IMG/VR virus record: IMGVR_UViG_3300047157_000111
Coordinates: 4,207-68,206 of that record
Length of the DNA: 64,000 bases
DNA from: a virus
Reading direction: 5' to 3' (one strand)
This document shows positions 2,462 to 51,806 of the stretch, piece by piece (position 1 is the first letter of the stretch; each line of letters begins with the position of its first letter). The notes beneath the pieces are model-generated. The model was not told the origin of the DNA and did no database searches. It saw only the letters and a list, made by a program, of their open reading frames with translations. The translations under genes and the position numbers were made by a program.

Positions 2462-5400
2462 ATGGAAGAATTAGAATTAATCGTTCAAAGAATGATAGAC
2501 GCTGGTGAACCAGAAGAAAACATAAAAGCAGTTATTGAAGAGTATACTGCGGGAAAGCAAACAGACCCTGTAAATGTAGAGGCGAATGCGGGGTCAAAAG
2601 AAAATACGGCCTCAAACTCGGAAGATGGTTTATCGGATTCACCTTTTTGGAATCCTAATGAAGAAACTACCGTAGAAAAACCTGGTTACTTTGAAGAAAA
2701 GTTTGGTGTAAAGAATGGATTTACTAACTTCGCAGATGATTTATTTAGAGTTTGGGAAGGTGGAGCTGCTCAAGGTGGAGGTGTTGATGAAGCTTTTGAT
2801 TTGTATAAGTTAGGAAAAGATATGAATCAAGACCAGCTAGAAGGTTTAATAAAATCAGGTAGAAGACTTGAAGAAGCTGGACAAACAGATGAAATGATTT
2901 ATGCTGGCCAGATGATGGAAAAGTATAAGAAAGAAGGTGATAATGGAGTTACGGCTTTTTTTAAATCCTACTTCAGCTTAGACAACCCAACGGTTATGGC
3001 TCAGTACATGACACAGTCTTTTGTTGGCATGTTAGCCTCACTTAAAGATAGTGAAGAAGTTTTAGGTACAGCATCCGCTGTAGCTGGTGGAGGTGCTATT
3101 GCTGGGGCTGGTGTAGGTTTAGTTGGTGGGCCTTTTGCTCCCGTCACATCAAGCGCTGGTGCTATAGCTGGAACTATAGGTGGTTTTATGGGTGGCTTGT
3201 CCGGCGCTATGGAAACAGGGTTGACAACAGCTCAGCTTTTACAAGAGTCGGCTACTGACGCTGGTTTAAACTGGAGCACTATGAGTGACGAGGCTAGAAT
3301 AGCTTATGTTAAGAAAGTCACTAATAATGAAACCATGTTTAACGACATAAAAAGCAAAGCTTTAGCTAGAGGTATAACTATTGGTGCTATAGACGGTATC
3401 ACAGGTGTTGTAACAGGTGGTGCTAGTGGTGCCGTTAGCAAAGGTGTTGCTAAGTCAACGGCTAGCGCTTTGACTAAATCAGCAACCGTATTGACGTCAG
3501 CAGCTACAGAGACAGCAGGTGGTTTAGCTAGTGAGTATTTTGGTCAAAAAGCAGGTGGACAAGAGTTTAACCTTGAAGAGATAATGATAGAAGGTTTTGC
3601 TGATAAATCTTTTACAGCTATAAATACTGTTAATGCATTGCGTAAAGGTAATCCTAAGTACTCTATAAACGGGGAAAAAATGAACGGTAAGCAGTTTCAC
3701 GATGCGTTAAAAATGATGGACGATGAAGCGTATATTACCGCTGATATAAATGTAGAAAATTCACCAGCCGTAGAATCCGTAGTCAATAATAGAAAACAAA
3801 ACATAAACTTAGATCAAGAAATAGATAGTAAAGTATCTGGTGTAGAGGATAGAGCTGAATTAATAAAGCTAGAAAAAGAAAGACTTAAGTTATCTAAGAA
3901 TAAAACAAGAACAGCAAAACAAAAGCTAGCAAATATAAATGCTAAGATAGACGAAATAAACTCCAAGTATGAGGGAGCTGAAGTAGACGTAACTATAGAG
4001 GATAGAAAGAAAGCTATAGCCAAAGCTATTGATGATAAATTTGAAGCATCGTTTAATAAAAACTTAGAAGCGGTAAAACCAGAAGCTGAAAAAAGAGGTC
4101 TTGATATTGATGTAAATGAAGACGAGGATACTTATTTCCAGAATATAGCCGATGATCAAGGTGTATCGTTAGAAGAAGCTAAGGAAAAAGCAGCTGGATC
4201 TGATGGGGTTTTTCTTGGTAAAGGTAAGATATTTATAAACAAAGTACAGGCTAAGAAAGTAGGTGCTGTATCCGTAGCTAGTCACGAGTTTTTACACCCT
4301 GTGTTAAATGCTCTAGTTGGTGATGGTAAGCAGCAAGCTAGTTTTTTAAAGCAATTCAAGTCTAGGGTTTCTAGTAAGAATAACACTTGGGTTATGAATG
4401 CTATGAAAGCGGGTGGTGTTGATCCTAGTAGTTATAACACTGAGTATATAAACTACTTTTCTGATGGTATACAAAAAAACAAAATAAGCTACGATCAAAG
4501 TTTATTTGAAAAAATAGGTGAGTCTTTAAAAAGACTGTTTGTTGGTAAAGGTTTTGATAACATATCTTTTGACAATGGTAGAGATGTTTATAATTTTCTA
4601 AAAGAATATAACACTAGCATAAAAAGTGGTAAAGTAAGTGATGTAGCATCTGAAGCTATAACTAAAGCTGAAAGTAAAAAAGATACTAAAATAAGTGACG
4701 TAGAGGCTTTGGATCAAAATGGTCAATTCTCTAGAACAGAGGACGTTCAAGAAATAAACGATATATATAACTCTAATGAAAGCAAGGAATTAGCTGGTTT
4801 TGAAATAGCTGATAAGTATAGAGGTATGGCGGAGTCTGTGTTTAACGCTTTGAAAGAAGGTAGTAATTATACACAGAACCAAAAAGAGGTTTTTGAAGGT
4901 AAGAAAGAGGACATGCTTGCTATGATGTTGTATGATAAAATACCTAGTCAGAAAGAAGACTCTAAAGCTAGGAACGTGGTTGGTTTGGTGCAAGACTTTG
5001 AATCTAAAAAACAAAAGTACAACAACGTTGCTGCTTACGTTAATACGTTTTTTAAAGAAAGATCTAAGGAAGTATTTAAGTATTTTTCTAAAGACGCTGT
5101 TAACGAGGGTTTAACTAAAGAAGATGGTACATTAAAGAAATCAGTTAGTAGTAAGGCAAACGAATCATCTAAAGTAGATCAGGGAAAAGAAGCTAGAAAG
5201 CTAAGTAGTTTTGATAAGTTAATGAAAGGCACAGAGTCTTTTATTGACGCATCAATTAAAAAAAATATTATAGTCAAGCTTACTAAAAACTTAAAAACAG
5301 CTGCTTTTAAAGGTAGGTTTACAGCTGAAAGCATAACCGCTGAAATAAAAAAACTAATAAAACAAGAGATAGAGAAAGCTGTTGTTAAGCGTATGGGTAA

Positions 5401-8400
5401 GATCAGTAAGACAAAAGCTGGTGTTGTTGTTAGTGAAGAGTATAAAAGCTTTCACAGCGAAAACTTTAACGCTATAGTTAAAGCCTTACCTGTATCTGTT
5501 ATAAAAAAGAAATACTTTTCTTTGTTTGAAAAGAAAAACATAGGTAGAGAGAAAACAGCACAAGGAAACGCTATATTTGAAATAAAACCTACATCTAAAG
5601 GTAAGTTTGGAGCATACTTTACTATAGGTGGTTATACTACGCTTCTAGCTAGACAAAAGTCTTTAGCTAACGAGATAAGTGCTGAGCTAATAAAAGATCA
5701 AGCTACTATACTAAAACAAGACATAGACTTTATGAGTGAGCTAGCTGAGGTCGCCGATATGAGTGGAGTACAAGTAACGGAGTTAGTACTGCAAACAGAG
5801 CTAGAATCTTTAGCTAATCAATTTGATAGAAAGAAAACAGAAGCTACTAAGTTTGATAAGATACAGTTTTCTAAAAACTTTAATAACGATCAAGTAAGTG
5901 AGTTAAACAAGAAAAGCAAAAAAATAATAGAACTAAGCAAAGTGTACACCACTGCTTCATCTTTAGCAAATAAGTTGATTAAAGACAAAATAATTGACAA
6001 TAAAGTTTTTACAGTTAAAGAGATAAAAGACTGGAAAAATGAAATACAATCTAGTGTTAACGCTATATTAAGCCCTAAAAACACTTTACAAAGCAATAAG
6101 CTAGGTGAGTATGTAGAGCAAAGGGTTGGGAACAAAAGCGATCTACCTTTAATAAGAATGCTTGATTTAAAGTCTTATGACGTGGTTATTAATGGTGTAA
6201 AAAAGAAATTCTCTAGTTTCGCAGAAGCGTTTAGAGACGCTAAACTTATAGAAAGACAAAGAAAGCTTCATATTGACTACTTTGAATCAAAAATAAAAAC
6301 ATTAGATGATTTAGTCTCGGTTTTAAAATGGTTTCCAGGCCACACAATATCAGCTGGGGCAAGGTATTTCATGAAGTCAAGGAACCAGTCGTTTGCTGGT
6401 ATGAAAGATTTAGTAGCGGAGCTTAATAAAATACTAGAAGTTAAAGGTTGGGAGATAAAAACAAAGCTAACGATAGATGGTAAAACACAGTTAGACAAAG
6501 TAATCAGCACAAAAACTGGAGAGGTTTTAATAGATAACAAAGATACAAAAGTTGGAGATAAGACAATAAAATCTCTTAGGAAACGTTTAACATCGTCATC
6601 TCAAGATACTAAAAAAACTGTTTTACAGTACATAAAAGAGCTTCCTCAAAGAATACAAGATGCAAATGAAGCTTGGAATACTATGATAGATTTTTTAAGT
6701 TTTGTTGACAAAAACGGTGATAACTTAGATTTTGGAATGACTATGATGAGTTTAAAATCTAACATGAGTAGTATGTTGAAAGCTGCTGCTCCTTTAACTT
6801 ATTATTTTGAAGGGTCATATGTTGGTAAGCTAGTGTATGAGCATTTAATACCTACAGAGTACGTAACTCAATCTTTAACTAAGCATTTTAAAATCAAAAA
6901 AATAAATTTAAATTCTTTACAAGATCAATACAAGGTCGCTATAGTTCCTAAAACAATGGACGACAATATAAATGGGTCTGCTAGACAGGAAAATATGCCT
7001 ACTTACTGGCAAATTGGCATGGAAGCTTTATTAAGATATTTTGATGATTTTACTTTTGGTTTTAAAAATATGTATGCTTTAAAAAACCTCCAAACAGGTG
7101 ATGTAGTAGGTAAAAAACATGCTAAAGCTCAATTTTCTAAGACAGATAAAACTAAAGCAGAAAACTTTAATAAGGCTATGATGAACGCTAGAAACCCTAA
7201 CGCGCCTGAAAAAGGTATTAGTGTTTTTGACTTTGATGATACAATAGCTCAATCTAATAGTAAAGTTCTATACGAACTACCAGACGGTAAAAAAGGTAAA
7301 ATAAACGCTACTGAGTTTGCTTTACAATCGGCAGATCTAGAAGCAGCAGGAGCTATATTTGATTTTAGTGAGTTTAGTAAAGTTATAGAAGGTAAAAAAG
7401 GACCTTTGTTTGATTTAGCTGTTAAGCGTCAGGGCAAGTTTACAAGTAAAGATATATTTATACTTACAGCTAGACCTCAAAACGCTGCTTACGCAATACA
7501 TGCTTTTCTAAAAGGTTTAGGTTTAACTATACCTATAAGTAATATAACCGGTTTAGCTGATGGTAAAGCTTCTGCAAAAGCTGATTGGATAATAGGTAAA
7601 GCTGCAGAAGGTTACAATAACTTTTACTTTGCTGACGATGCTTATAAAAATGTTAAAGCTGTTCAAAAGGTTTTAGATATAATAGATGTTAAAAGAGATG
7701 TTCAGTTAGCTAAGATACAATTTAGCAGAAACATGGACGAAGCTTTTAACGATATACTAGAGCAAACTAAGAAGGTTGATTCTAATAAAAGATTTTCTAA
7801 AGCAGCTGCTAAATCCAGAGGTAGAGATATAGGTAAATGGAAATTTTTCTTACCACCTTCCGCTGAAGATTTTGTAGGTTTATTATATAACTTTTTAGGT
7901 AAAGGTAAAGTTGGTGAACAACAAATGGAGTTTTTTAACAAAGCCTTAGTACAACCGTTTGCTAGAGCAATGGATGAGCTTAATAGAGCTAAGCAAGCTA
8001 TAGCTACTGACTTTAGGGCGTTAAAAAAGACTTATCCTGAGGTTAGAAAAATGCTAGCTAAAATAACACCATATAACAACTTTACATATGATACAGCTGT
8101 AAGAGTTTATATATGGAACAAGAAGGGTATTGCGATACCAGGTTTATCTAAAACTGATATAAAAAGACTGACGGATATTGTTGAGAATAATTCTGATTTA
8201 AAAGACTTTGCTGATACTTTAGAAGTTGGGGTTGCTAACAATAATTACCCTAACGCTGGGGACACTTGGCTAGTAGGTAATATTGCTACTGATTTAAAAG
8301 ATATAACAGATAAAATAGGTAGAAAAGAATTTCTACAAGAGTGGAAAGCAAACAAAGATGTTATATTTAGCACGGAAAACTTAAACAAAATAGAGGCTAT

Positions 8401-9814
8401 ATACGGTAGTAATTTCAGGGAAGCACTGGAAGATATGCTGTATAGAATGGAAAATGGTACAAATAGGAGTTTTGGTAGCAACAGATTAGTTAATTCTTTC
8501 TCAAATTGGGTGAATAACTCTGTAGGTGCTATTATGTTTTTCAACATGAGATCTGCAATACTTCAGACTATATCATTTGTTAACTTTGTAAACTGGAGTG
8601 ATAACAATCCTCTAAAGTTTGCTGGAGCAATATTAAACGTTAAGCAATTCTCTAGCGACTTTGTAACTTTGTTTAACTCAGATATGTTAAAGCAGAGGCG
8701 AGCTGGTATAGGTAGAGACGTTAATGAATCTGAAATAGCTGAAGCTATGAGTGGCGCTAGAAATAAACCGAGAGCTATACTTAATTATTTACTTAGAGTA
8801 GGTTTTACACCTACGCAAATAGCAGATAGTTTTGCAATATCAATGGGTGGTGCTGCTTTTTATAGAAACAGAATAAACACATACTTGAAACAAGGTATGA
8901 CAAAAGATCAAGCTTTGGATCAAGCATTTAAAGACTTCCAAGAAACTACTGAAGTTTCACAACAGTCTTCAAGACCTGATATGATTAGTCAACAACAAGC
9001 CGGTCCATTGGGTAGATTAATATTAGCTTTCCAAAATACACCAATGCAGTATACTAGGTTGATGAAAAAAGCTTTTAAAGATCTGATAAACGGTAGAGGT
9101 GATGCTAAAACTAATTTATCTAAAATAGTTTACTACGGTGTTGTTCAAAATATAATATTTGCATCCATGCAATCAGCATTGTTCGCTATGTTATTTGATG
9201 ATGACGACGATGAAGATAAATATAGCAAGAAAAAAGGTAGAATAGCAAACACAATGACAGACTCTATACTTAGAGGTTCTGGATTAGCCGGTGCTGGTAT
9301 ATCTACTATTAAAAATGTTATATTAAAATTCTTAGAACAAGAAGAAAAAGGTTGGAACGCGGATCACGCTTATACTGTTATTGAAGCCGCTAATTTCTCT
9401 CCACCTATTGGTTCTAAACTTAGAAAAATGTATTCAGGTATACAGACTTATAAATTTAATAAAGATGTTATAGCTGATAGAGGTCTTTCTTTGAATAATC
9501 CAGCGTGGCAATCAGCAGGTAACTTTGTATCCGCGGCAACTAACATACCTATGGATAGAGCTGTAAATAAGTATAATAACTTAAGAGGAGCAGCAAATAA
9601 CAACAATGAAGCTTGGCAAAGAATAGCTATGGCTCTAGGTTGGAATTCTTGGGATGTAGACGCTGAAGTAGAGACTGGATATAAAGACTATAAAGCAAAA
9701 CTAAAGAAAACACAAAAAAGAAGAAAAATACTAAACAAAAGAAGAGACAAAGCTAGTAATAGGCAGGAGATTATAAATAAAAGAAGAGAAATATTAAGAA
9801 ACCGAAAAAAATAA
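2462..9814 (+). CDS. giant modular virion/ejection (polyvalent) protein
   Basis: 2450 aa; Gly/Ala hydrophobic helices, zincin HEFLH, sigma-region-2-like segment, YEHLIP, HAD motifs DFDDT...TAR...K...FADD. Confidence 0.7.
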   Translation: MEELELIVQRMIDAGEPEENIKAVIEEYTAGKQTDPVNVEANAGSKENTASNSEDGLSDSPFWNPNEETTVEKPGYFEEKFGVKNGFTNFADDLFRVWEGGAAQGGGVDEAFDLYKLGKDMNQDQLEGLIKSGRRLEEAGQTDEMIYAGQMMEKYKKEGDNGVTAFFKSYFSLDNPTVMAQYMTQSFVGMLASLKDSEEVLGTASAVAGGGAIAGAGVGLVGGPFAPVTSSAGAIAGTIGGFMGGLSGAMETGLTTAQLLQESATDAGLNWSTMSDEARIAYVKKVTNNETMFNDIKSKALARGITIGAIDGITGVVTGGASGAVSKGVAKSTASALTKSATVLTSAATETAGGLASEYFGQKAGGQEFNLEEIMIEGFADKSFTAINTVNALRKGNPKYSINGEKMNGKQFHDALKMMDDEAYITADINVENSPAVESVVNNRKQNINLDQEIDSKVSGVEDRAELIKLEKERLKLSKNKTRTAKQKLANINAKIDEINSKYEGAEVDVTIEDRKKAIAKAIDDKFEASFNKNLEAVKPEAEKRGLDIDVNEDEDTYFQNIADDQGVSLEEAKEKAAGSDGVFLGKGKIFINKVQAKKVGAVSVASHEFLHPVLNALVGDGKQQASFLKQFKSRVSSKNNTWVMNAMKAGGVDPSSYNTEYINYFSDGIQKNKISYDQSLFEKIGESLKRLFVGKGFDNISFDNGRDVYNFLKEYNTSIKSGKVSDVASEAITKAESKKDTKISDVEALDQNGQFSRTEDVQEINDIYNSNESKELAGFEIADKYRGMAESVFNALKEGSNYTQNQKEVFEGKKEDMLAMMLYDKIPSQKEDSKARNVVGLVQDFESKKQKYNNVAAYVNTFFKERSKEVFKYFSKDAVNEGLTKEDGTLKKSVSSKANESSKVDQGKEARKLSSFDKLMKGTESFIDASIKKNIIVKLTKNLKTAAFKGRFTAESITAEIKKLIKQEIEKAVVKRMGKISKTKAGVVVSEEYKSFHSENFNAIVKALPVSVIKKKYFSLFEKKNIGREKTAQGNAIFEIKPTSKGKFGAYFTIGGYTTLLARQKSLANEISAELIKDQATILKQDIDFMSELAEVADMSGVQVTELVLQTELESLANQFDRKKTEATKFDKIQFSKNFNNDQVSELNKKSKKIIELSKVYTTASSLANKLIKDKIIDNKVFTVKEIKDWKNEIQSSVNAILSPKNTLQSNKLGEYVEQRVGNKSDLPLIRMLDLKSYDVVINGVKKKFSSFAEAFRDAKLIERQRKLHIDYFESKIKTLDDLVSVLKWFPGHTISAGARYFMKSRNQSFAGMKDLVAELNKILEVKGWEIKTKLTIDGKTQLDKVISTKTGEVLIDNKDTKVGDKTIKSLRKRLTSSSQDTKKTVLQYIKELPQRIQDANEAWNTMIDFLSFVDKNGDNLDFGMTMMSLKSNMSSMLKAAAPLTYYFEGSYVGKLVYEHLIPTEYVTQSLTKHFKIKKINLNSLQDQYKVAIVPKTMDDNINGSARQENMPTYWQIGMEALLRYFDDFTFGFKNMYALKNLQTGDVVGKKHAKAQFSKTDKTKAENFNKAMMNARNPNAPEKGISVFDFDDTIAQSNSKVLYELPDGKKGKINATEFALQSADLEAAGAIFDFSEFSKVIEGKKGPLFDLAVKRQGKFTSKDIFILTARPQNAAYAIHAFLKGLGLTIPISNITGLADGKASAKADWIIGKAAEGYNNFYFADDAYKNVKAVQKVLDIIDVKRDVQLAKIQFSRNMDEAFNDILEQTKKVDSNKRFSKAAAKSRGRDIGKWKFFLPPSAEDFVGLLYNFLGKGKVGEQQMEFFNKALVQPFARAMDELNRAKQAIATDFRALKKTYPEVRKMLAKITPYNNFTYDTAVRVYIWNKKGIAIPGLSKTDIKRLTDIVENNSDLKDFADTLEVGVANNNYPNAGDTWLVGNIATDLKDITDKIGRKEFLQEWKANKDVIFSTENLNKIEAIYGSNFREALEDMLYRMENGTNRSFGSNRLVNSFSNWVNNSVGAIMFFNMRSAILQTISFVNFVNWSDNNPLKFAGAILNVKQFSSDFVTLFNSDMLKQRRAGIGRDVNESEIAEAMSGARNKPRAILNYLLRVGFTPTQIADSFAISMGGAAFYRNRINTYLKQGMTKDQALDQAFKDFQETTEVSQQSSRPDMISQQQAGPLGRLILAFQNTPMQYTRLMKKAFKDLINGRGDAKTNLSKIVYYGVVQNIIFASMQSALFAMLFDDDDDEDKYSKKKGRIANTMTDSILRGSGLAGAGISTIKNVILKFLEQEEKGWNADHAYTVIEAANFSPPIGSKLRKMYSGIQTYKFNKDVIADRGLSLNNPAWQSAGNFVSAATNIPMDRAVNKYNNLRGAANNNNEAWQRIAMALGWNSWDVDAEVETGYKDYKAKLKKTQKRRKILNKRRDKASNRQEIINKRREILRNRKK

Positions 9815-20826: not shown

Positions 20827-21585
20827 CTACAGGTAATCAAGCACTTGCGAGTGGTCTACAGACTCTATTAATTTCTCAACAGCTTGCTTTTTTAACTGCG
20901 AAACTCTTACGTAAGAGCTACTACCTTTTATGTTTAACATAGAGGCTATATCTTTTGCGGCGTGTTTTTCACAGTCTAAACCGTAGCTCAGTCTTAGTAT
21001 ATTATATTCCAAATCGTTTAAATGTTTCTTTAATAAACCAGTTAGGTATATGTTTAATATCTGCTGGTTGTATGGTTCTGACTTGTCAGGAATATCATAT
21101 ACTGAGTTATCATCATTGTTAGGCTTCTCATCTATACTTAAAAATATAGAATTAAAAAACATAGCAACCATTTTTTCATCTTTACCGAAGTTCTTACGCA
21201 TCTCGTTAAGCTTGTGCTCTGGTATACGTATATCACCTCTGTTTATATCTATAGATCTTCTTATTGCTCCTTTAATTCTTTTACTAAAAAATGATTTCAA
21301 TGTCTTCTCGTAGTCTTCAGATTTTTCTAGTGTTGGCCAATCTAATCTATCAACAGCTTTAGTTAGTCCTGCTGCTCCTGATTGTATTAAATCCATAATA
21401 CTCTGTACACCTGAAGCTTGTTGACTGGTTGAAAACTTTCTAGCTAGACTTTCTACTAAAGGCATAAACTTAGTTATAAGCTCTTCTCTAGTACAGTCTG
21501 CCCAGTCTTTATTCTCTAGTCTTATCAAAGCTTGCTTAAGATCTTCTTTGTATCTTATATAGTTCTGTATGTTATACTTTTTCAT
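20827..21585 (-). CDS. sigma-70-family RNA polymerase sigma factor
   Basis: Region 2 (LVESLARKF...DLIQSG..GLTKAVD...IKGAIRR, IRIPEH) and region 4 HTH (ILRLSYGL...RVSQLKKQA). Confidence 0.85.
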   Translation of the reverse strand: MKKYNIQNYIRYKEDLKQALIRLENKDWADCTREELITKFMPLVESLARKFSTSQQASGVQSIMDLIQSGAAGLTKAVDRLDWPTLEKSEDYEKTLKSFFSKRIKGAIRRSIDINRGDIRIPEHKLNEMRKNFGKDEKMVAMFFNSIFLSIDEKPNNDDNSVYDIPDKSEPYNQQILNIYLTGLLKKHLNDLEYNILRLSYGLDCEKHAAKDIASMLNIKGSSSYVRVSQLKKQAVEKLIESVDHSQVLDYL

Positions 21586-23245: not shown

Positions 23246-24086
23246 AATTACGTATTGCTTTGTAAAATGGATGTCTGTAACTACCAGCTGGTGTACGTTC
23301 GAAATATGTAAACGTAGCTCGCTTACCTATGTAGTCGCTAACGTTATCTAGTATATCAGCTAGCATTTTGTAGTTGTAACCTTTACCTGGAGGACAACCA
23401 AATTCTACGCCATCGTCATCAATCATTAAGAATTTACCTAATGTGCCTGTGCGTTTACCTTTACCAGGAACATAGCCTACTATAGTGGCTTCTGTGTCGT
23501 GAAAGTCTTTAAACTTTTGCAAGTTGTAAGAACGCTTGCATTCATATGGCTTATCTAGTCTTAGTATAGATCCTTCGTAACCCGCGTTTAAGTTTATTTG
23601 ATGCAACACTTTAGCGTGATCATTGTCTTTAACTTGAGTTGTGTGTGTATGTTTAACACAATAAGAATACATATCAGAACAAGCTAGTTGATCCATTCTG
23701 TAACTATAAGGCATGTTTAACACATTTTCTATGTAGTCATAACAATGAAATTGTACTAATTTAGATGCCTCAGTTCTGTCAGATGGCGTTGGTTTAGTTT
23801 TTCTGACTAATGATATGATCTTGTTGAAATCGTCTCTTAGATCATGATTATATAACTCACCGTCAAGTATAATATCAGGGTTCTGTGTGAAAAAGAAATG
23901 TAATGAATTAGTAATGTGAGCTATGTTAAGCCACGGTTTACCAGTACGTGAAAAAGCTTGTACTTCATTATTGTCGCCGAGTTTAATCACACATCTAACA
24001 CCATCTAGTTTAGGTTGCATATATACTTTCTCGGACCAGTCGACAGGTTTTTTGTCTACTTTGTATGCGAGCATTGGTTTTATCAT
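23238..24086 (-). CDS. lig: ATP-dependent DNA ligase
   Basis: PMLA, QPKLDGVRC, LDGELY, YEGSILR, KFK, RHP. Confidence 0.92.
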   Translation of the reverse strand: MIKPMLAYKVDKKPVDWSEKVYMQPKLDGVRCVIKLGDNNEVQAFSRTGKPWLNIAHITNSLHFFFTQNPDIILDGELYNHDLRDDFNKIISLVRKTKPTPSDRTEASKLVQFHCYDYIENVLNMPYSYRMDQLACSDMYSYCVKHTHTTQVKDNDHAKVLHQINLNAGYEGSILRLDKPYECKRSYNLQKFKDFHDTEATIVGYVPGKGKRTGTLGKFLMIDDDGVEFGCPPGKGYNYKMLADILDNVSDYIGKRATFTYFERTPAGSYRHPFYKAIRNYE

Positions 24087-24087
24087 A

Positions 24088-24360
24088 TTATTTAAATTTA
24101 TTTAGTTTATTTTCTACTTTTATTATATCTATTTTTATTTGTTCACACTTTTTATAATCTTCTTTCTGTAAATTATAATCAAGTGCAGTCATTAATTGAG
24201 CTAGCTCAGCAAGAAGGGTTTGCTCTTCATCATCGTTGAGTGTAAATACCCACTCTTCGGGAATTGATTCAGAACTATGCCCTTCAGCTAAAGCCTCTAC
24301 AACTAACTCAGCAACTCGTCTTGCTAATTTTTCAATATCGTTATCAGACATATTATCCAT
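24088..24360 (-). CDS. hypothetical protein with UVR-like C-terminal coiled coil
   Basis: EDYKKCEQIKIDI. Confidence 0.5.
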   Translation of the reverse strand: MDNMSDNDIEKLARRVAELVVEALAEGHSSESIPEEWVFTLNDDEEQTLLAELAQLMTALDYNLQKEDYKKCEQIKIDIIKVENKLNKFK

Positions 24361-24384
24361 TGTTGTTCGTATTAAGTTTGTAAA

Positions 24385-24849
24385 TTATCCTTGATTGTTA
24401 GGGTTTTTACTCCAATCAGTGTATTCGAATTCACTAGTAGAGTATTTATCTATTAATTTATCTACAGGTAAAACAAACATATTTCTAGACTCATAATTAT
24501 TATAGCAACTAACCCAAACATCAGGTTTACCTGTCCATAATATATAAGTATAATGATGATCTATGTTTTCTACGCTAGGGTAAAGGTATTGACTATTGTA
24601 ATGAAAGTCATGAACTAAATGAGATGAAATTCTTGAAGCATCACCAAAATTAGTAAAACCTTTAATGTCTTGCATATGTTTGACCCATTTCGCTAGTTGT
24701 ACACCTTGATACTCAGGGTAACCGTCGTGATGTAAATACATATTTACATAGCTTTTGTCACTGATCTCGTGTGGATGTATAGCAAAACCGTCTACATACT
24801 TACTAGATATAGATCTGTCGACAACCATTGTTAAACTTCTTGTACTCAT
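24385..24849 (-). CDS. conserved phage hypothetical protein (HxDGYP motif)
   Basis: MSTRS...YLHHDGYP. Confidence 0.6.
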   Translation of the reverse strand: MSTRSLTMVVDRSISSKYVDGFAIHPHEISDKSYVNMYLHHDGYPEYQGVQLAKWVKHMQDIKGFTNFGDASRISSHLVHDFHYNSQYLYPSVENIDHHYTYILWTGKPDVWVSCYNNYESRNMFVLPVDKLIDKYSTSEFEYTDWSKNPNNQG

Positions 24850-25289
24850 TGTTTTATTTTTTCGTATTCATAACCTTCTTCTATCAACTCGTTTTCAACT
24901 TGCTTTTTCATCTCGCTTGTGTAAGATTCATAGAGTTGCATAACAGCATCTTGAACGTAATCACTATCAATATCATCTACATATATTAGCTCGTTATAAT
25001 CACTAGCAGCCTCAACTAACCTGTCAGCTAAGTCATGATCATAGTAGTGTACGTCTTCATTTATACAGACGCTTCTACCATCACCGCTAGTTGTAACCCA
25101 AACTTCATAGCCATCAGCTGTAGTTTCAGCGTATATACTATAGTCAGGAGTTTTATTCCAAGTGTCTGTTATATCAAACTCATAATGGTTTTTAACAACT
25201 CTAAGAGCTTCGTCATGGTCAATATCATAGTCAATACCTATAGCTTCTAGTCTTTCGTCGATTAAGTCTTCTGTTAATATTTTTTTCAT
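24846..25289 (-). CDS. acidic early hypothetical protein
   Basis: 147-aa Asp/Glu-rich ORF coupled to its neighbours. Confidence 0.6.
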   Translation of the reverse strand: MKKILTEDLIDERLEAIGIDYDIDHDEALRVVKNHYEFDITDTWNKTPDYSIYAETTADGYEVWVTTSGDGRSVCINEDVHYYDHDLADRLVEAASDYNELIYVDDIDSDYVQDAVMQLYESYTSEMKKQVENELIEEGYEYEKIKQ

Positions 25290-25501
25290 ATTTCTTTATT
25301 TATTATTTTATCTATTTTATTTATAAGATAATCCTTATCTGTCATGTTACCGTAGTATTCTTGTAAATGCCAAGCTATATCATTTAACTTGTTTTCCAAA
25401 GCTACAATATATATTTTATCATCTTGTTTAATAGGCATTTGTCTTGGATCTATCTCACCTGACTCAACCATTTCGTAATATTTTGTTACTGAATCGCTCA
25501 T
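25286..25501 (-). CDS. early hypothetical protein
   Basis: 71-aa ORF, translationally coupled. Confidence 0.55.
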   Translation of the reverse strand: MSDSVTKYYEMVESGEIDPRQMPIKQDDKIYIVALENKLNDIAWHLQEYYGNMTDKDYLINKIDKIINKEI

Positions 25502-25734
25502 TACTTTACGATTTTATTACCATACATGAAACTTAAGTTATCTAGTTTCCAAGAGTCTAGATCACCATATGTCAATAGATCTCTAACTTCATCGATGGTT
25601 AATTCTGACCACATTAATTTTGACATTAACGTGTACTTTAATCTTTTAGCTGAGCTGTATTTTCTAGCACTAGCTTGTAAACTTGTTTTAACGTCGGGCA
25701 ACAAGTTGTCGTAGACGGTTTTTAGTTTTGTCAT
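25501..25734 (-). CDS. early hypothetical protein
   Basis: 77-aa ORF downstream of a promoter copy. Confidence 0.6.
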   Translation of the reverse strand: MTKLKTVYDNLLPDVKTSLQASARKYSSAKRLKYTLMSKLMWSELTIDEVRDLLTYGDLDSWKLDNLSFMYGNKIVK

Positions 25735-25801
25735 TTGTAAAATTTAATTATTAATTATTATTATTATCCACACTCATACGTATTATGTATGTAAATATTA
25801 G

Positions 25802-25875
25802 GTGCGCAGGAAGGACTCGAACCTTCGACCTCGAGTTTATGAGACTCGCGAGATAACCAACTTCTCCACCGCGCA
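25802..25875 (-). tRNA. tRNA with CAT anticodon (Met, fMet-like D arm)
   Basis: TGCGCGG/CTGCGCA acceptor, GAGA/TCTC D stem, CGAGT-CTCATAA-ACTCG anticodon arm, GAAGG-TTCGAGT-CCTTC T arm; CCA not encoded. Confidence 0.88.
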
Positions 25876-25879
25876 ATTT

Positions 25880-25979
25880 GTAACTAGTAAGGATTCGAAC
25901 CTTATAACCGTCGTTAGCCCATATACACTACAAGCTCGTAAAAACGTTTACTTGTACAATGTTTTGCCTGACCTAGTTG
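25880..25979 (-). ncRNA. tRNA-like RNA with acceptor and T arm but a long non-canonical middle arm
   Basis: AACTAG/CTAGTT stem and TAAGG-TTCGAAT-CCTTA T arm; lies 4 nt upstream of the tRNA. Confidence 0.5.
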
Positions 25980-26070
25980 CCGCTAGCTATTCACTTATGT
26001 ATGAGAATCCATCATATAACCTATTTTTCATGATCAACTTCAAACTCATCTAATTAAGCTACTCGTCTAG

Positions 26071-26259
26071 CTACTTGCGTCGCCAAGCTCTGTGCACAGA
26101 TGCGCTAACTTCTTGGCTAACAATTTGTATTGTATTACCAGTTTTATGCTCGATAATAGGTACGTAGCTGTAATCTTCTACTGTACTACATGGTACACAT
26201 GTTTTATAGCCATAATTTATTCTGATAGGATGCACTACTGTGCCGCATTTACAATACAT
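26071..26259 (-). CDS. C4 zinc-finger protein (TraR/DksA-like)
   Basis: CKCG..VHPIR......TCVPC. Confidence 0.5.
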   Translation of the reverse strand: MYCKCGTVVHPIRINYGYKTCVPCSTVEDYSYVPIIEHKTGNTIQIVSQEVSASVHRAWRRK

Positions 26260-26319
26260 ATTTATTTATTTTATTTGTTACATTTATATTATCCAAACTT
26301 GTTCGTATTAAGTTTGTAA

Positions 26320-26508
26320 TTATTTTTTATTTGTACTAATATACATGTACTCAATAGCTTTACTCATTACATAACTATGTAGGTCGTTGTATTCATCGCC
26401 TTCAACAGGTTGATCTGCTATTTGCCAATCAATACTATCATACATTATTTCTTTAGTGACGTCAGCAATACCTTGTGCTATCTCGTCTATTTCTTTCATT
26501 CTACTCAT
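26320..26508 (-). CDS. early hypothetical protein
   Basis: 62-aa acidic ORF. Confidence 0.55.
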   Translation of the reverse strand: MSRMKEIDEIAQGIADVTKEIMYDSIDWQIADQPVEGDEYNDLHSYVMSKAIEYMYISTNKK

Positions 26509-26509
26509 A

Positions 26510-26770
26510 TTATATCTTATTAAATATTGTTACTTCAACCCAACCTTTTTCACTGTGACCTGCCTCACATTTAATTCCAGCTTTAGTTAACTGATCTTCT
26601 AGCTTTATCGCCGCATCCCATAAATCTGGTTCAGGCATCTCGTCATGGTCATCATCATACATAACCTCACCTCTACATTGATAGAATATATCATCGTAGT
26701 CATTTTCTACGTACTCAAAATCCCAACCATTTACTCTTACGTCTTGCTTTTCTTTTAATATCTCTCTCAT
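26510..26770 (-). CDS. early acidic hypothetical protein
   Basis: 86-aa ORF in a tight operon. Confidence 0.6.
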   Translation of the reverse strand: MREILKEKQDVRVNGWDFEYVENDYDDIFYQCRGEVMYDDDHDEMPEPDLWDAAIKLEDQLTKAGIKCEAGHSEKGWVEVTIFNKI

Positions 26771-26771
26771 A

Positions 26772-27173
26772 TTAATACATTGTTAAGTTTCTCATGTTAT
26801 AGTTTCTCTTGCAGAAGTCTATTATATATACAAGTCTAGCAAGCGGATCATTGATTAATTCTCTAGCATAACATATAGCCTTTGTAGTTTCTAGCTTACC
26901 GTCACGCATTATTGTCCATCGCTCTTCGCGTTTATATACTTTATTTAGTTGATATATTCTGTCACTTGAGTTACATCTTCTTACGTAACCTGTTTTGTAA
27001 GACGCTATTTGATCACCGTTTGGCAAAACAAATTGTCTTGTACCATTTTTCTTTTGTCTGTCAGTAGTCATTTCTATGATGTTATACTCAACAAACATAC
27101 GTTTAGCGAACAAGTCTACTAGTTCTGCACGTCTTTGTTTCCAATTCATATGCTCTTGATATAGATCTCTCAT
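26772..27173 (-). CDS. early hypothetical protein
   Basis: 133-aa ORF in a tight operon. Confidence 0.6.
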   Translation of the reverse strand: MRDLYQEHMNWKQRRAELVDLFAKRMFVEYNIIEMTTDRQKKNGTRQFVLPNGDQIASYKTGYVRRCNSSDRIYQLNKVYKREERWTIMRDGKLETTKAICYARELINDPLARLVYIIDFCKRNYNMRNLTMY

Positions 27174-27436
27174 AATGTTTTTCTTATTAATATTAGTTGT
27201 TTAGTGTCGAATTTTTTATGTGTTTCTTGCCACATTTTGTTGTGTGTAAACTTTCTTGATTTAGAGAAACTAGATTTTTGACCTGTTTTAACTCTATTCC
27301 ACTCGCTATCAGTTAAACCTGAGTGCATAGTGTGATGTGAATGTTTACGTCTGTGCTCGTTACCTCGTAACTTTCTCTGATTTGCAGAGTATGCACACAG
27401 CTCTTTCATGGTTGTTGGATTAGATGTTACGCCCAT
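27170..27436 (-). CDS. early basic hypothetical protein
   Basis: 88-aa ORF overlapping its neighbours. Confidence 0.55.
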   Translation of the reverse strand: MGVTSNPTTMKELCAYSANQRKLRGNEHRRKHSHHTMHSGLTDSEWNRVKTGQKSSFSKSRKFTHNKMWQETHKKFDTKQLILIRKTL

Positions 27437-27621
27437 GGATTATCTGATTTTTGTACATAGGTTAAACCTTTGTAGTTGAACCAATCGGTGATTCCGTCTT
27501 GATCTTTGTCTTCATTGTAAATAAAAGCAAACTTTTTAGGTAGACTGCTAACTGAGTAGCCTTTGTAAGTTTTGTTGTTAATTTTAATTGTTGACGAATT
27601 GATAAATTTTATTGATTTCAT
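27427..27621 (-). CDS. early hypothetical protein
   Basis: 64-aa ORF downstream of a promoter copy. Confidence 0.55.
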   Translation of the reverse strand: MKSIKFINSSTIKINNKTYKGYSVSSLPKKFAFIYNEDKDQDGITDWFNYKGLTYVQKSDNPWA

Positions 27622-27639
27622 ATTGTATATTTGATTATA

Positions 27640-27786
27640 TTATCCATTACTGTTCGTATTTGGTTTGTAAAATAACATAGAATTTAGCTCACTGTTATTA
27701 TACTTTGCCCAATATTGTCTTTCTACGGCTTCTATTTGAGCTCGTGAGATCTTAAAGAGTGGTTTATGTGAGTGTTTTCTTTTCAT
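27640..27786 (-). CDS. early hypothetical protein (48 aa)
   Basis: MKRKHSHKPLFKISRAQIEAVERQYW...; ATGA overlap with the upstream ORF. Confidence 0.4.
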   Translation of the reverse strand: MKRKHSHKPLFKISRAQIEAVERQYWAKYNNSELNSMLFYKPNTNSNG

Positions 27787-27992
27787 CTGTAGTCAACATT
27801 AGGTTTAATATTCGCTGCAGTTGCTTGTCTGAACTCCCACTCACGTTGTCTGTAAGCGTGATCAGTACACCATTTTCGCCAAGCTTTACTTACAGTATTG
27901 TTAACACCGTATTTAGCTTCGAACTCTTCGACTTGTCTAAGTTTAGCGTCGATCTGTTCTTGAGGGTAATCTTTATATTTAGTAGAAGTCAT
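27783..27992 (-). CDS. early hypothetical protein
   Basis: 69-aa ORF. Confidence 0.55.
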   Translation of the reverse strand: MTSTKYKDYPQEQIDAKLRQVEEFEAKYGVNNTVSKAWRKWCTDHAYRQREWEFRQATAANIKPNVDYR

Positions 27993-28098
27993 AGTATATA
28001 TCTAAAACGGTTGATCTTTGTTCTGAAGTGAGTTTACTGTAGCACTTACCGTATTTTCTGTAGCTTATTTTAAGCAGGTATGTATTCATATGTGACAT
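27979..28098 (-). CDS. early hypothetical protein (39 aa)
   Basis: MSHMNTYLLKISYRKYGKCYSKLTSEQRSTVLDIYYDFY. Confidence 0.4.
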   Translation of the reverse strand: MSHMNTYLLKISYRKYGKCYSKLTSEQRSTVLDIYYDFY

Positions 28099-28103
28099 AG
28101 TTA

Positions 28104-28241
28104 TTATTTTTTATTAGTTAATTTATAGAACTCTATTCTGTCAAGAACATCTTGTCTAGTTATTTTATTTTCCATTTGTAATAGTATATCGTTTGACATA
28201 TCTATTTTTTTACCGTTAGAGCAAGTTAGTATATATTGCAT
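28104..28241 (-). CDS. early hypothetical protein (45 aa)
   Basis: MQYILTCSNGKKIDMSNDI...; directly downstream of a promoter copy. Confidence 0.5.
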   Translation of the reverse strand: MQYILTCSNGKKIDMSNDILLQMENKITRQDVLDRIEFYKLTNKK

Positions 28242-28299
28242 ATTATTATTTATTAGTTATTATTATTATCCATTAGTGATCGTATTTAGTTTGTAAATA

Positions 28300-28449
28300 C
28301 TATCCATATATTCCAAAACTATTTGGCGCTCCATTTTGTATCATATCTACTACTAAAGCGATTGATCCACATATTACTAATGTTAATTGAGCGTAAGCGA
28401 TAATACCAATTACTATATTTAATACTTTGTGATGATGAAATTTTCTCAT
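28300..28449 (-). CDS. early single-TM membrane protein (49 aa)
   Basis: MRKFHHHK then a hydrophobic stretch VLNIVIGIIAYAQLTLVICGSIALVV. Confidence 0.5.
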   Translation of the reverse strand: MRKFHHHKVLNIVIGIIAYAQLTLVICGSIALVVDMIQNGAPNSFGIYG

Positions 28450-28482
28450 AATTTATTTATTTATTTATTTATTTGTTATTAG

Positions 28483-28523
28483 TTGACATGGTGAGAATCG
28501 AACTCACATTAACCATTATGTCA
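28483..28523 (-). ncRNA. tRNA minihelix-like element (acceptor stem + T arm only)
   Basis: TGACATA-ATGGTTAAT-GTGAG-TTCGATT-CTCAC-CATGTCA-A. Confidence 0.5.
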
Positions 28524-28582
28524 TTACTTGTTCACATTTTTATACTTATAGAAACAAGTGGAACTCAAAGTTGATTGATAGT

Positions 28583-28813
28583 TTACTGTACTTCGACTAT
28601 CTCTCTCGCGATCACTGGAACACTAGTTGAAGAAGTGTAAGATTTGTACTTAAGAAAACAGTTCATGTTACTTAGTTTATCTTTCATTACTTCATACACT
28701 TTATCGTGATTGTAAGTGACTGACTTTCCATTTTTGAAGTTGACAGTGATTGTTTGATTTTTTCCGATTAGTGATTGTCTGATGACAAATCTTTTTGAAA
28801 TTAAGTTACTCAT
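28583..28813 (-). CDS. early hypothetical protein
   Basis: 76-aa ORF downstream of a promoter copy. Confidence 0.6.
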   Translation of the reverse strand: MSNLISKRFVIRQSLIGKNQTITVNFKNGKSVTYNHDKVYEVMKDKLSNMNCFLKYKSYTSSTSVPVIAREIVEVQ

Positions 28814-28902
28814 AGTTGTAAGAATTATTTAGTTATTATTATTATTTGTTTGTTACATAGATATTATCCATATCCATTCGTATTATGTATGTATTATTAT
28901 TA

Positions 28903-29025
28903 TTATAGATTTATTATTATTTCTTCATATAAATAATCTTGAATCATTTCATTATATTTTTCTCGACAGTCGGTCAATGGATTGAATGGAAATTCTGATT
29001 TGATTTGATTGATTAATTCTTTCAT
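28903..29025 (-). CDS. first early gene, hypothetical (40 aa)
   Basis: MKELINQIKSEFPFNPLTDCREKY...; lies between two promoter copies. Confidence 0.45.
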   Translation of the reverse strand: MKELINQIKSEFPFNPLTDCREKYNEMIQDYLYEEIIINL

Positions 29026-29113
29026 ATTTATTATTTGATGGTTACGATTATATTATCCATATTCATTCGTATTATGTATGTAAAAGGTATATGAATTGTT
29101 TAGTTGTAGAATA

Positions 29114-29209
29114 TGTCATGATGTCATACCACACTATGTCACAATGTCACATTCATAATAGTTTAAGTACTATGACAAGATGTCATGATCTACTAGTGTC
29201 AATGTGTCA
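29114..29209. repeat. TGTCA/TGACA iteron-like cluster
   Basis: Eight pentamers in four pairs, 8 bp apart within each pair (29114/29122, 29137/29145, 29173/29181, 29197/29205). Confidence 0.6.
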
Positions 29210-29260
29210 TGAAAACGAGTAAAAGGTGAAATATCTGTAGTAAAATGCGAGCATAACTTC

Positions 29261-29385
29261 GTGGTGAGGTGAGTGGAGGGGGTATATAGGTGGGGGCATG
29301 GAATTACAGGGCGGGGCTGGTCAAAAACATTTGACTTTGGTTTTAGTGTTGAAGGGTGGGGGGGAGGGGGGAACGCTATACCCCT
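29261..29385 (+). other. G-rich strand-asymmetric non-coding tract (origin, terminus or packaging-site candidate)
   Basis: Many G runs, including GGGTGGGGGGGAGGGGGG, in an AT-rich genome at the strand-divergence point. Confidence 0.5.
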
Positions 29386-29410
29386 ATATATCTGATACTT
29401 TTCAAAAAAC

Positions 29411-29457
29411 CATGACAATAGCCTATAAGAGTATATAAGTAGGAGGCTAATGTCACA
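29411..29457 (+). promoter_or_regulatory. 47-bp (CA)TGACA...TGTCACA inverted-repeat operator
   Basis: Same length and arms as 22188-22234; precedes the rightward operon. Confidence 0.6.
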
Positions 29458-29493
29458 CTTTAAAATAATTTAAAACTATGTGATTATAGTGAT

Positions 29494-29730
29494 ATGGCAA
29501 GAAAACGAAGAGGAAACTCACAAGGATTATCACCCACTGCTTTAAAAGCAAAGAGAGAAAGAGATAAGGAAATGGCTATGACGCCAAGACGTACAGCTAT
29601 GAGATCCCAAAACCAATCGATAGGCCAAACCTCAACTAGAGATATACATCATGTAGATGGAGTCGCTGGTAAAACAATATACCAGTCAATATCTCAGAAC
29701 AGAGACTCAAGTAACGAAAGAAACGCTTAG
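29494..29730 (+). CDS. small HNH-like protein
   Basis: Basic N-terminus, RDIHHVDG...SISQNR. Confidence 0.5.
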   Translation: MARKRRGNSQGLSPTALKAKRERDKEMAMTPRRTAMRSQNQSIGQTSTRDIHHVDGVAGKTIYQSISQNRDSSNERNA

Positions 29731-30087: not shown

Positions 30088-31653
30088 ATGGAATTTAATA
30101 ACCCTAGCGAGCTTGTCAAGGATTTATCCTTCGGTGAGGAAGCTAAAAGTAAAGTAATTAATGGTGTAGATAAACTAGCTAAAGCAGTAAAGTCTACATT
30201 AGGAGCTTCAGGTAAGTGTGTCATTTATGAAGATGCTCGTGGAAGACCGGTGATAACAAAAGACGGTGTAACCGTTGCGGAAAGCGTAGTCTTAATGGAT
30301 CCGGTCGAAAACATAGGAGCAACACTTATCAAAGAAGCTGCTAAAAACACAGTGAAAGAAGCAGGTGACGGTACTACAACAGCTACCGTCCTTGCTGAAT
30401 CACTACTAAAAGAAGCATCGTCAGCAGAAGGCTCAGTAAGAGACATAAAGCTAGGCATTGCATCTTGTGCTAAAAAAGTAAACAAGTACTTAGACGATAT
30501 AACTATAGAGGTCAAAGGCGAAATGCTAAGAGACGTTGCAGCTATATCATGTAACAACGATAACGAACTAGGTGCCATCATATCTGATGCTTATGAAAAA
30601 GTAGGTAAATCAGGTGTGGTTTTGATGGAAGAGTCAGAAACAGAACAAACGTACGTTGAGATCGTAGATGGAGTACAGTTGGAATCTGGCTTAAAATCGC
30701 CACACCTTATTACAGATAGAGATAAACAACGTACAGTTCTTGAAAAACCGCTAGTATTAATAGTTGCATCGACAATACCTAACATACGTAAGATACAACC
30801 AATACTAGAACATGTTATAAAGACTAAGAGATCGTTACTTATAGTAGCTGAAGTTGAGACTCAAGTGTCATCTACGCTACTAATGAACAAAGTTAAGGGT
30901 AATATAAAGGTAAATTATATAGATCCACCAGGATTTGGTCCTACAAAGCAAAGTACGCTTGAAGATTTAGCATTTTTAACAGGTGCTACTATAATGGATG
31001 AGAATCTAGGTGATGATTTAGACCTTATAAAGCCTGATTGCTTAGGTGAAGTACAAAAAGCGGTCACAGATGATAAAACTACAGTGCTAACCACTATGGA
31101 TTTAGGCTTAGATTTAGAAGAAAGGATCAAAGATGTGCAAAAAAGCATAAAAAAAGAAAAAAACCAGTACATAAAACGAAGACTAGAGCAAAGATTAGCC
31201 ATGTTAAGTGGTTCAGTTGGCTTAGTGAGAGTTGGTGCTGACTCAAAGGTTGAGTTGAAAGAGAAAAAAGACAGAATAGAAGATGCTATTTACGCCGTTA
31301 AGGCCGCCTTGAAAGAAGGAATAGTCCCGGGTGGTGGTGTAGCGTTGTTTGATGCGGCAAAATTTGTTGAACCTAGCGGTTTAGGAGAAGAAATACTTCT
31401 AAAATCCATAGTTTCACCGTTTAACACGATATTAGACAATGCAGGCATCATAAATTCTGTTAAAAAAGACGAAGTATACGGTTATGGTATAGATGTAACC
31501 ACTGGTGAGTATATCAATATGATAGAAAAAGGTATAATTGATCCAGTTTTAGTTACTAAGTCAGCTCTTAAAAATGCAATATCAGTAGTTTCTACTATAA
31601 TATCTGCAGATTGTGTAATCTCTAATGTAAGAATAGAAAATGCAAGCAGTTAA
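30088..31653 (+). CDS. groEL: phage chaperonin GroEL
   Basis: [28 protein letters not shown]; no GGM tail. Confidence 0.95.
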
Positions 31654-51017: not shown

Positions 51018-51213
51018 TATCGGTAAAGATTATAAAAATGAAGCTATGCATTATGCCGTGGGCCAAGAGGTCTACGGCGGGCATACTATTTGTCATATAA
51101 CAGAAGAAGATGACAAGTTTAGTATATTTATTAAAAAAGCTGACGAGGTTTTACCTTGGAAAGACTTTAATAAAAATATGGCTGTAGCTATAGAGTATAA
51201 TCTAGAGTATTAA
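50995..51213 (+). CDS. conserved hypothetical protein
   Basis: MKLIRKISIGKDYKNEAMHYAVGQ...; likely start is the ATG at 50995. Confidence 0.6.
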   Translation: MKLIRKISIGKDYKNEAMHYAVGQEVYGGHTICHITEEDDKFSIFIKKADEVLPWKDFNKNMAVAIEYNLEY

Positions 51214-51806
51214 TGAAGAGCATATTTGATTTTGTTGTTGAGCCAGTAGGCGACAGATACAACAACACTAAAAATATAGATGGCGTTGATTTAATACTAA
51301 ACACGCAAATATTCACACATCAAAACGTAAATAGGCTAGCAATAGTTAAAAGCTTACCTATAACAGGTGACACTAATATTAGAATAGGTGATCAAGTCAT
51401 TGTTCATCACAATGTTTTTAGAAGGTATCATGACGTTAGAGGAGTGGAAAAGAATGGCAAGAGTTATATAGATGATGATAATTATCTATGTTCTTTTGAC
51501 CAGATATTTTTATATAAAAACAAAAACGAGTGGAAAGCACCTAAGGGTTATTCATTTGTTAAACCTATTGAATCTAATAATATTTTTAATCTAAACAAAG
51601 AATTGCCTAGTATAGGTGTTGTAAAGTATCTCGATGAAGACTTTGATTCACAAATACAACAAGGTGATTTAGTTGGTTTTACTCCTGGTAGTGAATACGA
51701 GTTTATAGTAGATGACGAAAGATTATATAGAGTTAGATCTCAGTCATTAACTATTAGATATGAATATCAAGGAGACGAAAAAGAATATAATCCAAGCTGG
51801 GCATAA
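51213..51806 (+). CDS. tandem double GroES-like co-chaperonin
   Basis: Two units: FVVEP...IRIGDQVIVH and FVKP...GVVKY...GDLVGF...EFIVDDERLYRV. Confidence 0.55.
   Translation: MKSIFDFVVEPVGDRYNNTKNIDGVDLILNTQIFTHQNVNRLAIVKSLPITGDTNIRIGDQVIVHHNVFRRYHDVRGVEKNGKSYIDDDNYLCSFDQIFLYKNKNEWKAPKGYSFVKPIESNNIFNLNKELPSIGVVKYLDEDFDSQIQQGDLVGFTPGSEYEFIVDDERLYRVRSQSLTIRYEYQGDEKEYNPSWA

Follow-up and report, generated by a model that had tools for sequence, protein, structure and literature searches.

A likely sigma-70 region-2-like domain within a giant protein encoded among the virion genes of a marine Flavobacteriia podophage

How does a phage launch its early genes when no polymerase gene is recognised in its genome, its sole canonical sigma factor is encoded downstream and its early promoters are unlike the host consensus? 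The question arises from a stretch of 64,000 nucleotides (nt), hereafter the window, covering positions 4,207 to 68,206 of IMG/VR record IMGVR_UViG_3300047157_000111 (68,206 bases), which stems from an uncultured metagenomic virus and is rated complete by CheckV. A first-pass annotation had proposed that a sigma-region-2-like domain at 4790-5090, inside a giant ejection protein, is injected by the virion and redirects host RNA polymerase (RNAP) to the early promoters. We found that amino acids (aa) ~759-887 of this protein very probably adopt a strongly diverged sigma-70 region-2 (sigma-2) fold, as judged by profile similarity and predicted structure. The resemblance reaches significance only with the family profile and the predicted structure, and not for the window's sequence alone. 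We class the domain as sigma-2-like rather than as a sigma factor, because it falls below the Pfam threshold and lacks both region 4 and the melting tryptophans.

The giant open reading frame (ORF; 2450 aa; 2462-9814, plus strand) closes the block of structural genes and comes just before the endolysin gene. Within it, module M2 (aa 755-1134, ~43 kDa; 4724-5863, plus strand) is bounded by conserved Q-F-S-[KR] sites, and the QFSR boundary that had been placed at aa 755 is indeed present (4724-4735). Homologues of M2 numbered 78 among 1.84 billion representatives and were exclusively giant proteins or their fragments. The first half of the module, the sigma-2-like helical domain M2a (aa ~759-887; 4736-5122, plus strand), encloses 4790-5090, and the second half, M2b (aa ~915-1134; 5204-5863, plus strand), is basic, with an isoelectric point of 9.6. 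The string in which a parallel to region 2 had been read, EIADKYRGMAESV...KEDMLAMMLYD...GLVQDFESKKQKYNNVAAYVNTFFKER, corresponds to aa 781-868, and the interval 4790-5090 (aa 777-877) is therefore correct.

Within the clade of the window no sigma signal can be seen; it emerges only through distant members of the family and through the fold. Two hidden Markov models (HMMs) of sigma region 2 gave weak, in-register matches in distant members, at the homologous place upstream of the second module half. These members carry a much clearer region 2.2-2.3 pattern, some of them bridge to 'GLVQDF....AAYVNTFF' of the window, and the family consensus, ..D.I..G..GLI..Y(D/N)P.....LA.YI......R, is the pattern of regions 2.2-2.3. 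We grouped 111 upstream stretches into 18 clusters and limited hhalign to the sigma-like core. The window's cluster C0 aligned with cluster C8 (Prob 95.8, P = 8e-9) and with C4 (Prob 94.1, P = 1.3e-7); C8 in turn aligned with the sigma region 2 alignment (Prob 73, P = 3e-5) and C7 with Escherichia coli region 2 (Prob 39, P = 3.1e-4). A profile of 18 representatives from nine clusters, with the window as first row (A3), was searched against 177,635 PDB sequences and returned 15 matches at E ≤ 10, of which 13 were sigma factors (best E, 6.5e-4 and 1.3e-3): eleven named as such, plus T4 gp55 (E = 0.36) and WhiG. These alignments span regions 1.2-2.3. The A3 core also matched the sigma region 2 alignment by hhalign (Prob 72, P = 3.4e-5), and P was 0.058 or higher for each of 38 decoy windows taken out of these giant proteins. 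When A3 members were scanned singly against Pfam, Sigma70_r2 was the most frequent family (4 of 18 members, best E = 0.0089), at sub-threshold scores and with the window row not among the four. With a profile built from the clusters directly linked to that of the window (A7), a sigma factor ranked top of the same PDB sequences (E = 0.0062), followed by an unrelated protein (E = 0.011).

Structure prediction pointed the same way. Model 1 (AlphaFold on A3; aa 767-906) comprised five helices, with a predicted local distance difference test score (pLDDT) of 79.1 and a predicted template modelling score of 0.70; model 2 (AlphaFold on alignment A1; whole M2) had a pLDDT of 77.4. Model 2 is the fairer test, because the 50 sequences of A1 had been assembled before any sigma comparison. 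In an exhaustive fold search by VIA-align over 48,161 PDB representatives, ranks 1-9 for model 2 were sigma factors (Z 8.1-6.5, root-mean-square deviation 2.9-4.7 Å over 84-100 residues), led by ShbA (Z 8.1, 3.5 Å, 100 of 113 residues), pro-sigmaK (Z 7.2) and sigB (Z 6.9, 2.9 Å over 89 residues), and including SigW, WhiG, SigI6, CnrH and sigma32; the remaining one is a chain of an RNA-guided transcription complex whose sigma identity is our guess. The best non-sigma match, a dynamin-like protein, came at rank 10 (Z 6.4). The top 50 held 21 named sigma factors and seven further entries that we take to be sigma chains, T4 gp55 among them. Model 2 superposed on residues 375-446 of E. coli sigma70 (region 2) at 2.6 Å over 72 residues, and every fold match lay within model residues 1-135. 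For model 1 the best match was a designed mini-binder (Z 7.5), with 13 named sigma entries in the top 50, including sigmaK (Z 6.7, 3.3 Å, 87 residues) and an N-terminal fragment of SigR (Z 6.2, 77 of 78 residues), and four additional entries presumed to be sigma chains.

Several results weigh against a sigma relationship, beginning with every test made on the window's own sequence. The two region 2 HMMs scored the window stretch at -1.4 and -0.8 bits, values that 684 and 381 of 1000 shuffles equalled or exceeded; the stand-alone sigma of the same phage reached 26.4 bits against an HMM built from E. coli sigmas only. Pfam, with Sigma70_r2 (PF04542; curated cut-off 24 bits) included, gave zero matches at E ≤ 1 to 10, whether the query was the giant protein, M2 or the stretch of 137-140 aa, and in a six-frame scan of the genome the stand-alone sigma was the sole Sigma70_r2 match. 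M2 had no match in PHROG (E ≤ 0.01), in NCBIfam or, by phmmer, in the PDB; tblastn against 50,697 phage records was negative; and BLASTP against the phage's own sigma gave a best E of 0.20, outside region 2. By hhalign, both the whole module and cluster C0 stayed at Prob 0.1-0.2 against sigma factors, compared with 96.6-98.1 for the control, the stand-alone sigma against E. coli sigmas. The A1 profile found three PDB matches at E ≤ 10, none of them a sigma factor, and an iterative profile seeded from the window alone (68/135 family proteins) never reached one. Its alignment form (A4; 13 of 21 rows window-like) likewise met no sigma in the PDB, the top match being EsxA at 0.17. A C7-only profile found no sigma in the PDB and a C8-only profile placed sigmaK on top, with E = 0.25. 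Further, A3 members were chosen after the first weak sigma matches, so some selection bias is possible. On the structural side, VIA-align cautions that helical models commonly give Z below about 8-13, and the values here are 5-8; we therefore gave weight to the ranking and to the coverage of whole sigma-2 domains rather than to Z. Foldseek, which had been named beforehand as the check on the models, found nothing significant in the PDB (best E, 0.99 and 0.23 for models 1 and 2) or in BFVD; the resemblance of the predicted models to sigma-2 comes from the VIA-align ranking.

The residues of the domain argue in part against a full sigma role. The core that hhalign aligned to E. coli RpoD regions 2.1-2.4 covers aa 800-866 (4859-5059, plus strand). 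It places the Asp of 'KED' (aa 817) on the Asp of RpoD 'LDLIQEG', and neither this residue nor the Asn of 'Y(I/V)N' (aa 861) varies in any of the 21 A4 rows. A 12-residue insert specific to the window's clade, MMLYDKIPSQKE (aa 821-832; 4922-4957, plus strand), sits in mid-domain where sigma has its 'QEG' turn, and in model 1 it forms an interhelical loop (model residues 58-72). Where hhalign laid AAYVNTFFKE on STYATWWIRQ, the tyrosine was kept, W433/W434 were replaced by T/F and Q437 by E, assuming the sigma70 numbering Y430, W433, W434 and Q437 for the residues that melt and read the -10 element; cluster C8 has K and N at the two region 2.3 tryptophan positions. Nor did M2b (40 representatives) resemble E. 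coli or phage sigmas, or their regions 3-4 alone, by hhalign (Prob ≤ 0.2). The spacing of the sigma pattern read in the first-pass annotation failed as well, with 22 residues and not four between EDM and GL. The claimed parallel to region 2 is at shuffle level in the window's sequence and was recovered through the family profile and the fold. From the window-only tests we had drawn the reading 'not sigma-like, chance resemblance', which was dropped once distant members showed the sigma signal.

Helices and two beta-hairpins make up M2b in the model, in which three short helices precede a beta-hairpin around the conserved LP...IKK.Y.KLF.....GRE.TA.GN.IF.I, a predicted topology that could be winged-helix-like.

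We then turned to the early promoter candidates. TGGATAAT occurs nine times in the window against 3.09 ± 1.86 expected, a count reached in 1 of 100 shuffles. Seven of the nine copies, all on the minus strand, lie within a 33-nt block, TTTACAaAC..AATACGa.......TGGATAAT, located at 24352-24384, 25763-25795, 26288-26320, 27639-27671, 28265-28297, 28863-28895 and, furthest upstream, 29052-29084. Each block stands 15-30 nt upstream of a small minus-strand ORF, and five of the seven fit the strict pattern, so the seven-copy early motif that had been described is real. The last six bases, GATAAT, are -10-like and closer to the proteobacterial -10 box than to the Bacteroidetes TAnnTTTG. Consistent with the claim that the motif is unlike the Bacteroidetes consensus, the canonical promoter TTG-N17-21-TAnnTTTG occurred nine times in the window against 8.0 ± 2.8 in shuffled sequence, and not once in 24000-29500. 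No consistent DNA hairpin was found at the motif, which is therefore not an N4-type promoter. The strict motif was present in 77 IMG/VR contig stretches (L015-L091), mostly from contigs of 40-72 kb. All four near-complete motif-bearing genomes encode the domain (giant ORFs of 1755-2995 aa, E = 1.4e-23 to 9.7e-5); in the more distant relative MW202828.1, which is without the domain, the motif is not above chance (6 matches versus 5.98 expected). This comparison covers five genomes, all of them kin, and so the co-occurrence adds little.

The stand-alone sigma gene (20827-21585, minus strand) is likewise real and encodes regions 2 and 4. Its product scored 22.7 bits for Sigma70_r2 and 20.1 bits for region 4, both slightly below the Pfam cut-offs, and matched phrog_351 'RNA polymerase sigma factor' (E = 8.8e-21). 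The family is very abundant: each of 8000 candidates scored passed E ≤ 1e-3, and identity was 73-100% among the top 120. The gene encodes the only canonical sigma and, on the strand that carries the motif copies, follows them downstream at a distance of about 3-8 kb, in agreement with the downstream position assigned to it before. No RNAP profile was found in the genome by a six-frame scan or by a PHROG scan of 53 window ORFs (from 80-100 aa upwards). Pfam, PHROG, NCBIfam and PDB-profile searches recognised no polymerase in the giant protein either, as had been stated from its motifs; apart from a poly-D run, DxDx[DT] occurs there once, as the DFDDT (aa 1590) of a module resembling HAD-type phosphatases.

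From these elements we propose a route for early transcription. The giant protein would be packed in the capsid and would exit with the DNA in the manner of ejection or 'polyvalent' proteins, as suggested by the position of its gene, its Gly-rich hydrophobic N-terminal part and a hydrophobic helix in its C-terminal module. The HExxH module described below, or else a head protease, would cut it at its QFS sites, and the sigma-2-like domain may dock on the host's core RNAP at the beta' clamp helices and, together with the basic M2b, steer the polymerase to the seven 33-nt promoters with their GATAAT end and no host consensus. Transcription of the early genes would then lead to the stand-alone phage sigma. 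The whole chain, from sigma-2 domain through packaging, cleavage, docking and early promoter reading to the second sigma, is a tentative proposal that we regard as possible and short of probable. Its functional part, an injected domain that binds core RNAP and directs reading of the early promoters, is possible at most. Equally tentative is the broader suggestion that podophages of marine Flavobacteriia, a widespread group, deliver a minimal sigma, consisting of a sigma-2-like domain and a new DNA-binding half, inside a giant self-processing virion protein; such a minimal sigma would capture host core RNAP at the incoming genome and start transcription from the 33-nt promoters. Of the injected sigma-like domain that had been postulated, the sigma-2-like fold is supported by profile, hhalign decoys and model; the absence of region 4, the unconserved region 2.3 tryptophan positions and the 12-residue insert of the clade speak against a full sigma role.

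Other explanations must be weighed against this proposal. The domain might be a true sigma-2 relative that binds host core RNAP without conferring promoter specificity, acting either as a competitor of host sigma that shuts off host transcription or as a tether that holds RNAP at the ejection complex, where transcription would help to pull the DNA in. In either case host sigma or another factor would read the early promoters. The same fold and profile evidence would fit such a protein, as would the invariant Asp aligned with that of RpoD 'LDLIQEG', the loss of the -10-melting tryptophan positions and the absence of region 4. It is rather unlikely in our estimate, given an early arm without a visible host-type promoter and a 33-nt motif conserved across many phages, a conservation that argues for a dedicated reader. 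In another reading, the giant-protein domain plays no part in early transcription: the motif would be read by a host alternative sigma or by the stand-alone sigma, the latter being itself packaged or expressed from a host-type promoter that escaped recognition. In its favour, the stand-alone gene encodes a complete sigma of a very abundant family, and the motif ends in a -10-like GATAAT. We consider this unlikely: the gene is downstream of the motif copies that it would have to serve, no other promoter candidate was found upstream, and the 21 nt from TTTACA to GATAAT are over-long for a usual -35/-10 pair.

A further objection is that nothing connects the module with RNAP: it would serve the ejection protein as a structural or cargo part, and its common helical arrangement would coincide with a weak chance or convergent sequence similarity. 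The uniformly negative window-only tests, the silence of Foldseek, Z values of at most 8.1 in a range common for helical models and the choice of A3 members after the first weak matches are all what this would predict. It is hard to square with A1, which predates the sigma tests and whose model nevertheless ranks sigma-2 domains at 1-9 of 48,161, with the 13 sigma factors among 15 A3 matches, with decoy windows that stay at P ≥ 0.058, or with clusters C8 and C7, which are separately similar and in register. We judge chance resemblance quite unlikely, and a diverged sigma-2 fold remains the preferred reading of M2a.

Comparison with known systems places the domain between several of them. The sigma-2 domains known so far belong to free sigma factors, and the likeness to sigma-70 factors is in the predicted fold, which spans whole sigma-2 domains (regions 1.2-2.4), especially those of the extracytoplasmic function and group 3 types. 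Unlike these free factors of 20-70 kDa, the domain is embedded in a 2450-aa protein; in the window it has no Pfam match, no region 3 or 4 and no region 2.3 tryptophans, and its clade carries the 12-residue insert. T4 gp55, a late sigma with a sigma-2-like domain only, is a free protein made during infection; it shares the sigma-2-only character and a fold similarity of Z 6.2 (3.1 Å, 92 residues) and 5.3, and is no closer to the module than cellular sigmas are. Virion-packaged RNA polymerases include the N4 virion RNA polymerase (vRNAP), gp66 of crAss-like phages and the tape-measure-fused RNAP of P23-45. The likeness to these is a giant protein of the virion block proposed to start early transcription from phage-specific promoters. 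The difference is that no polymerase profile or motif was found here, the proposed contribution being a specificity domain for the host enzyme and not an enzyme; unlike N4 promoters, the early motif has no consistent hairpin.

In a survey of polyvalent proteins of phages and conjugative elements (Iyer et al. 2017, PMC5512222), N4 vRNAP is noted to bear a metallopeptidase domain too, it is suggested that polyvalent proteins are packaged and act upon entry, and T4 Alt is described as virion-delivered and as retargeting host RNAP to early phage promoters. Our protein shares with the polyvalent class its very large multi-domain build, a gene within the virion block of a portal-terminase phage, its enzymatic modules and a possible metallopeptidase; Pfam searches detected no domain typical of that class in it or its relatives. 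T4 Alt, unlike the module, is an ADP-ribosyltransferase and not a sigma-like subunit. The word 'sigma' occurs zero times in the main text of PMC5512222, and no report of a sigma-2 domain embedded in a giant virion or ejection protein appeared in the titles and abstract openings surveyed. If true, the proposal would add a third launch route for phage early genes besides the host holoenzyme and virion RNA polymerases; and should the domain enter the cell along with the DNA, it would give a concrete, testable answer to how these abundant marine phages start transcription.

The first-pass annotation had invoked the virion polymerases of crAss-like phages. To judge from its terminase relatives and from the P22-like portal of the closest deposited genome, MW202828.1, the phage is not crAss-like but a marine Flavobacteriia podophage. 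The terminase relatives comprised 68 records of Flavobacterium 'elemo' phages and 15 of Cellulophaga phages, as well as Tenacibaculum and Maribacter phages. MW202828.1 carries a 3859-aa gene at the position equivalent to the giant gene, after portal and structural genes. In the window, the PHROG scan outlined a block of structural genes on the plus strand (terminase, portal, 'virion structural proteins', tail fibres) and a minus-strand block for replication and nucleotide metabolism (ribonucleotide reductase, ThyX, primase-helicase, Erf, exonuclease, ligase), with numerous small minus-strand ORFs at 24,000-29,100.

The remainder of the giant protein, which is probably carried in the virus particle given that its gene sits between virion genes and the endolysin gene, is modular as well. 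Upstream of M2, HEFLH (aa 608-612; 4283-4297, plus strand) fits HExxH of a possible zincin-type peptidase; across A1 its two H and its E hardly vary, and the region matched no peptidase profile in Pfam or, as A1 profile, in the PDB. Downstream, the QFSK boundary at aa 1135 (5864-5875, plus strand) is a possible processing site, at which S is found in 49 of 49 homologues, F in 42 and Q in 33. Further QFS[KR] sites are at aa 1557 (7130-7141) and aa 1753 (7718-7729), and Q-F-S-[KR]-[TS] is the pattern at four module borders. Together, the recurrent QFS borders and the nearly invariant HExxH look like those of a self-processing polyprotein. The module of aa 1135-1556 (5864-7129) had no matches and one strongly conserved motif only, E-H-x-x-P (YEHLIPTEY in the window). 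It is followed by the HAD-type phosphatase-like module that holds DFDDT (aa 1557-1752; 7130-7717, plus strand), which on its own weakly matched phrog_415 'polynucleotide kinase' (E = 2e-4), and by the C-terminal module (aa 1753-2450; 7718-9814, plus strand), the best conserved part, with its hydrophobic helix at aa 2227-2245. Pfam searches of 18 + 20 + 10 relatives gave nothing informative beyond Zeta_toxin/AAA_33 in two proteins and DUF5763 in one. The Zeta_toxin/AAA_33 P-loop kinase domain of these two distant relatives (P0053 and P0069) and the HAD-type module suggest delivered RNA or DNA end repair of the polynucleotide kinase-phosphatase type.

Elsewhere in the window, a GroEL-like chaperonin is encoded at 30088-31653 (phrog_5725, E = 1.5e-132) and a GroES-like co-chaperonin at 51213-51806 (phrog_13932). 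No DNA polymerase family was matched by the 53 ORFs of 80-100 aa or more that were compared with PHROGs at E ≤ 1e-5. The final ORF of the window (62101-63999) overruns the record end, and another open frame runs from the first bases of the record (L014 2-2500). Both frames match phrog_14478 with a one-base offset across the junction, and the linear record may therefore lack or repeat a base at its ends. Lastly, two tail-fibre genes (37660-40114 and 44797-46201) contain the repeat ..GCAACTTTTGCAGG(T).. more than ten times, which probably encodes a repeated peptide unit.

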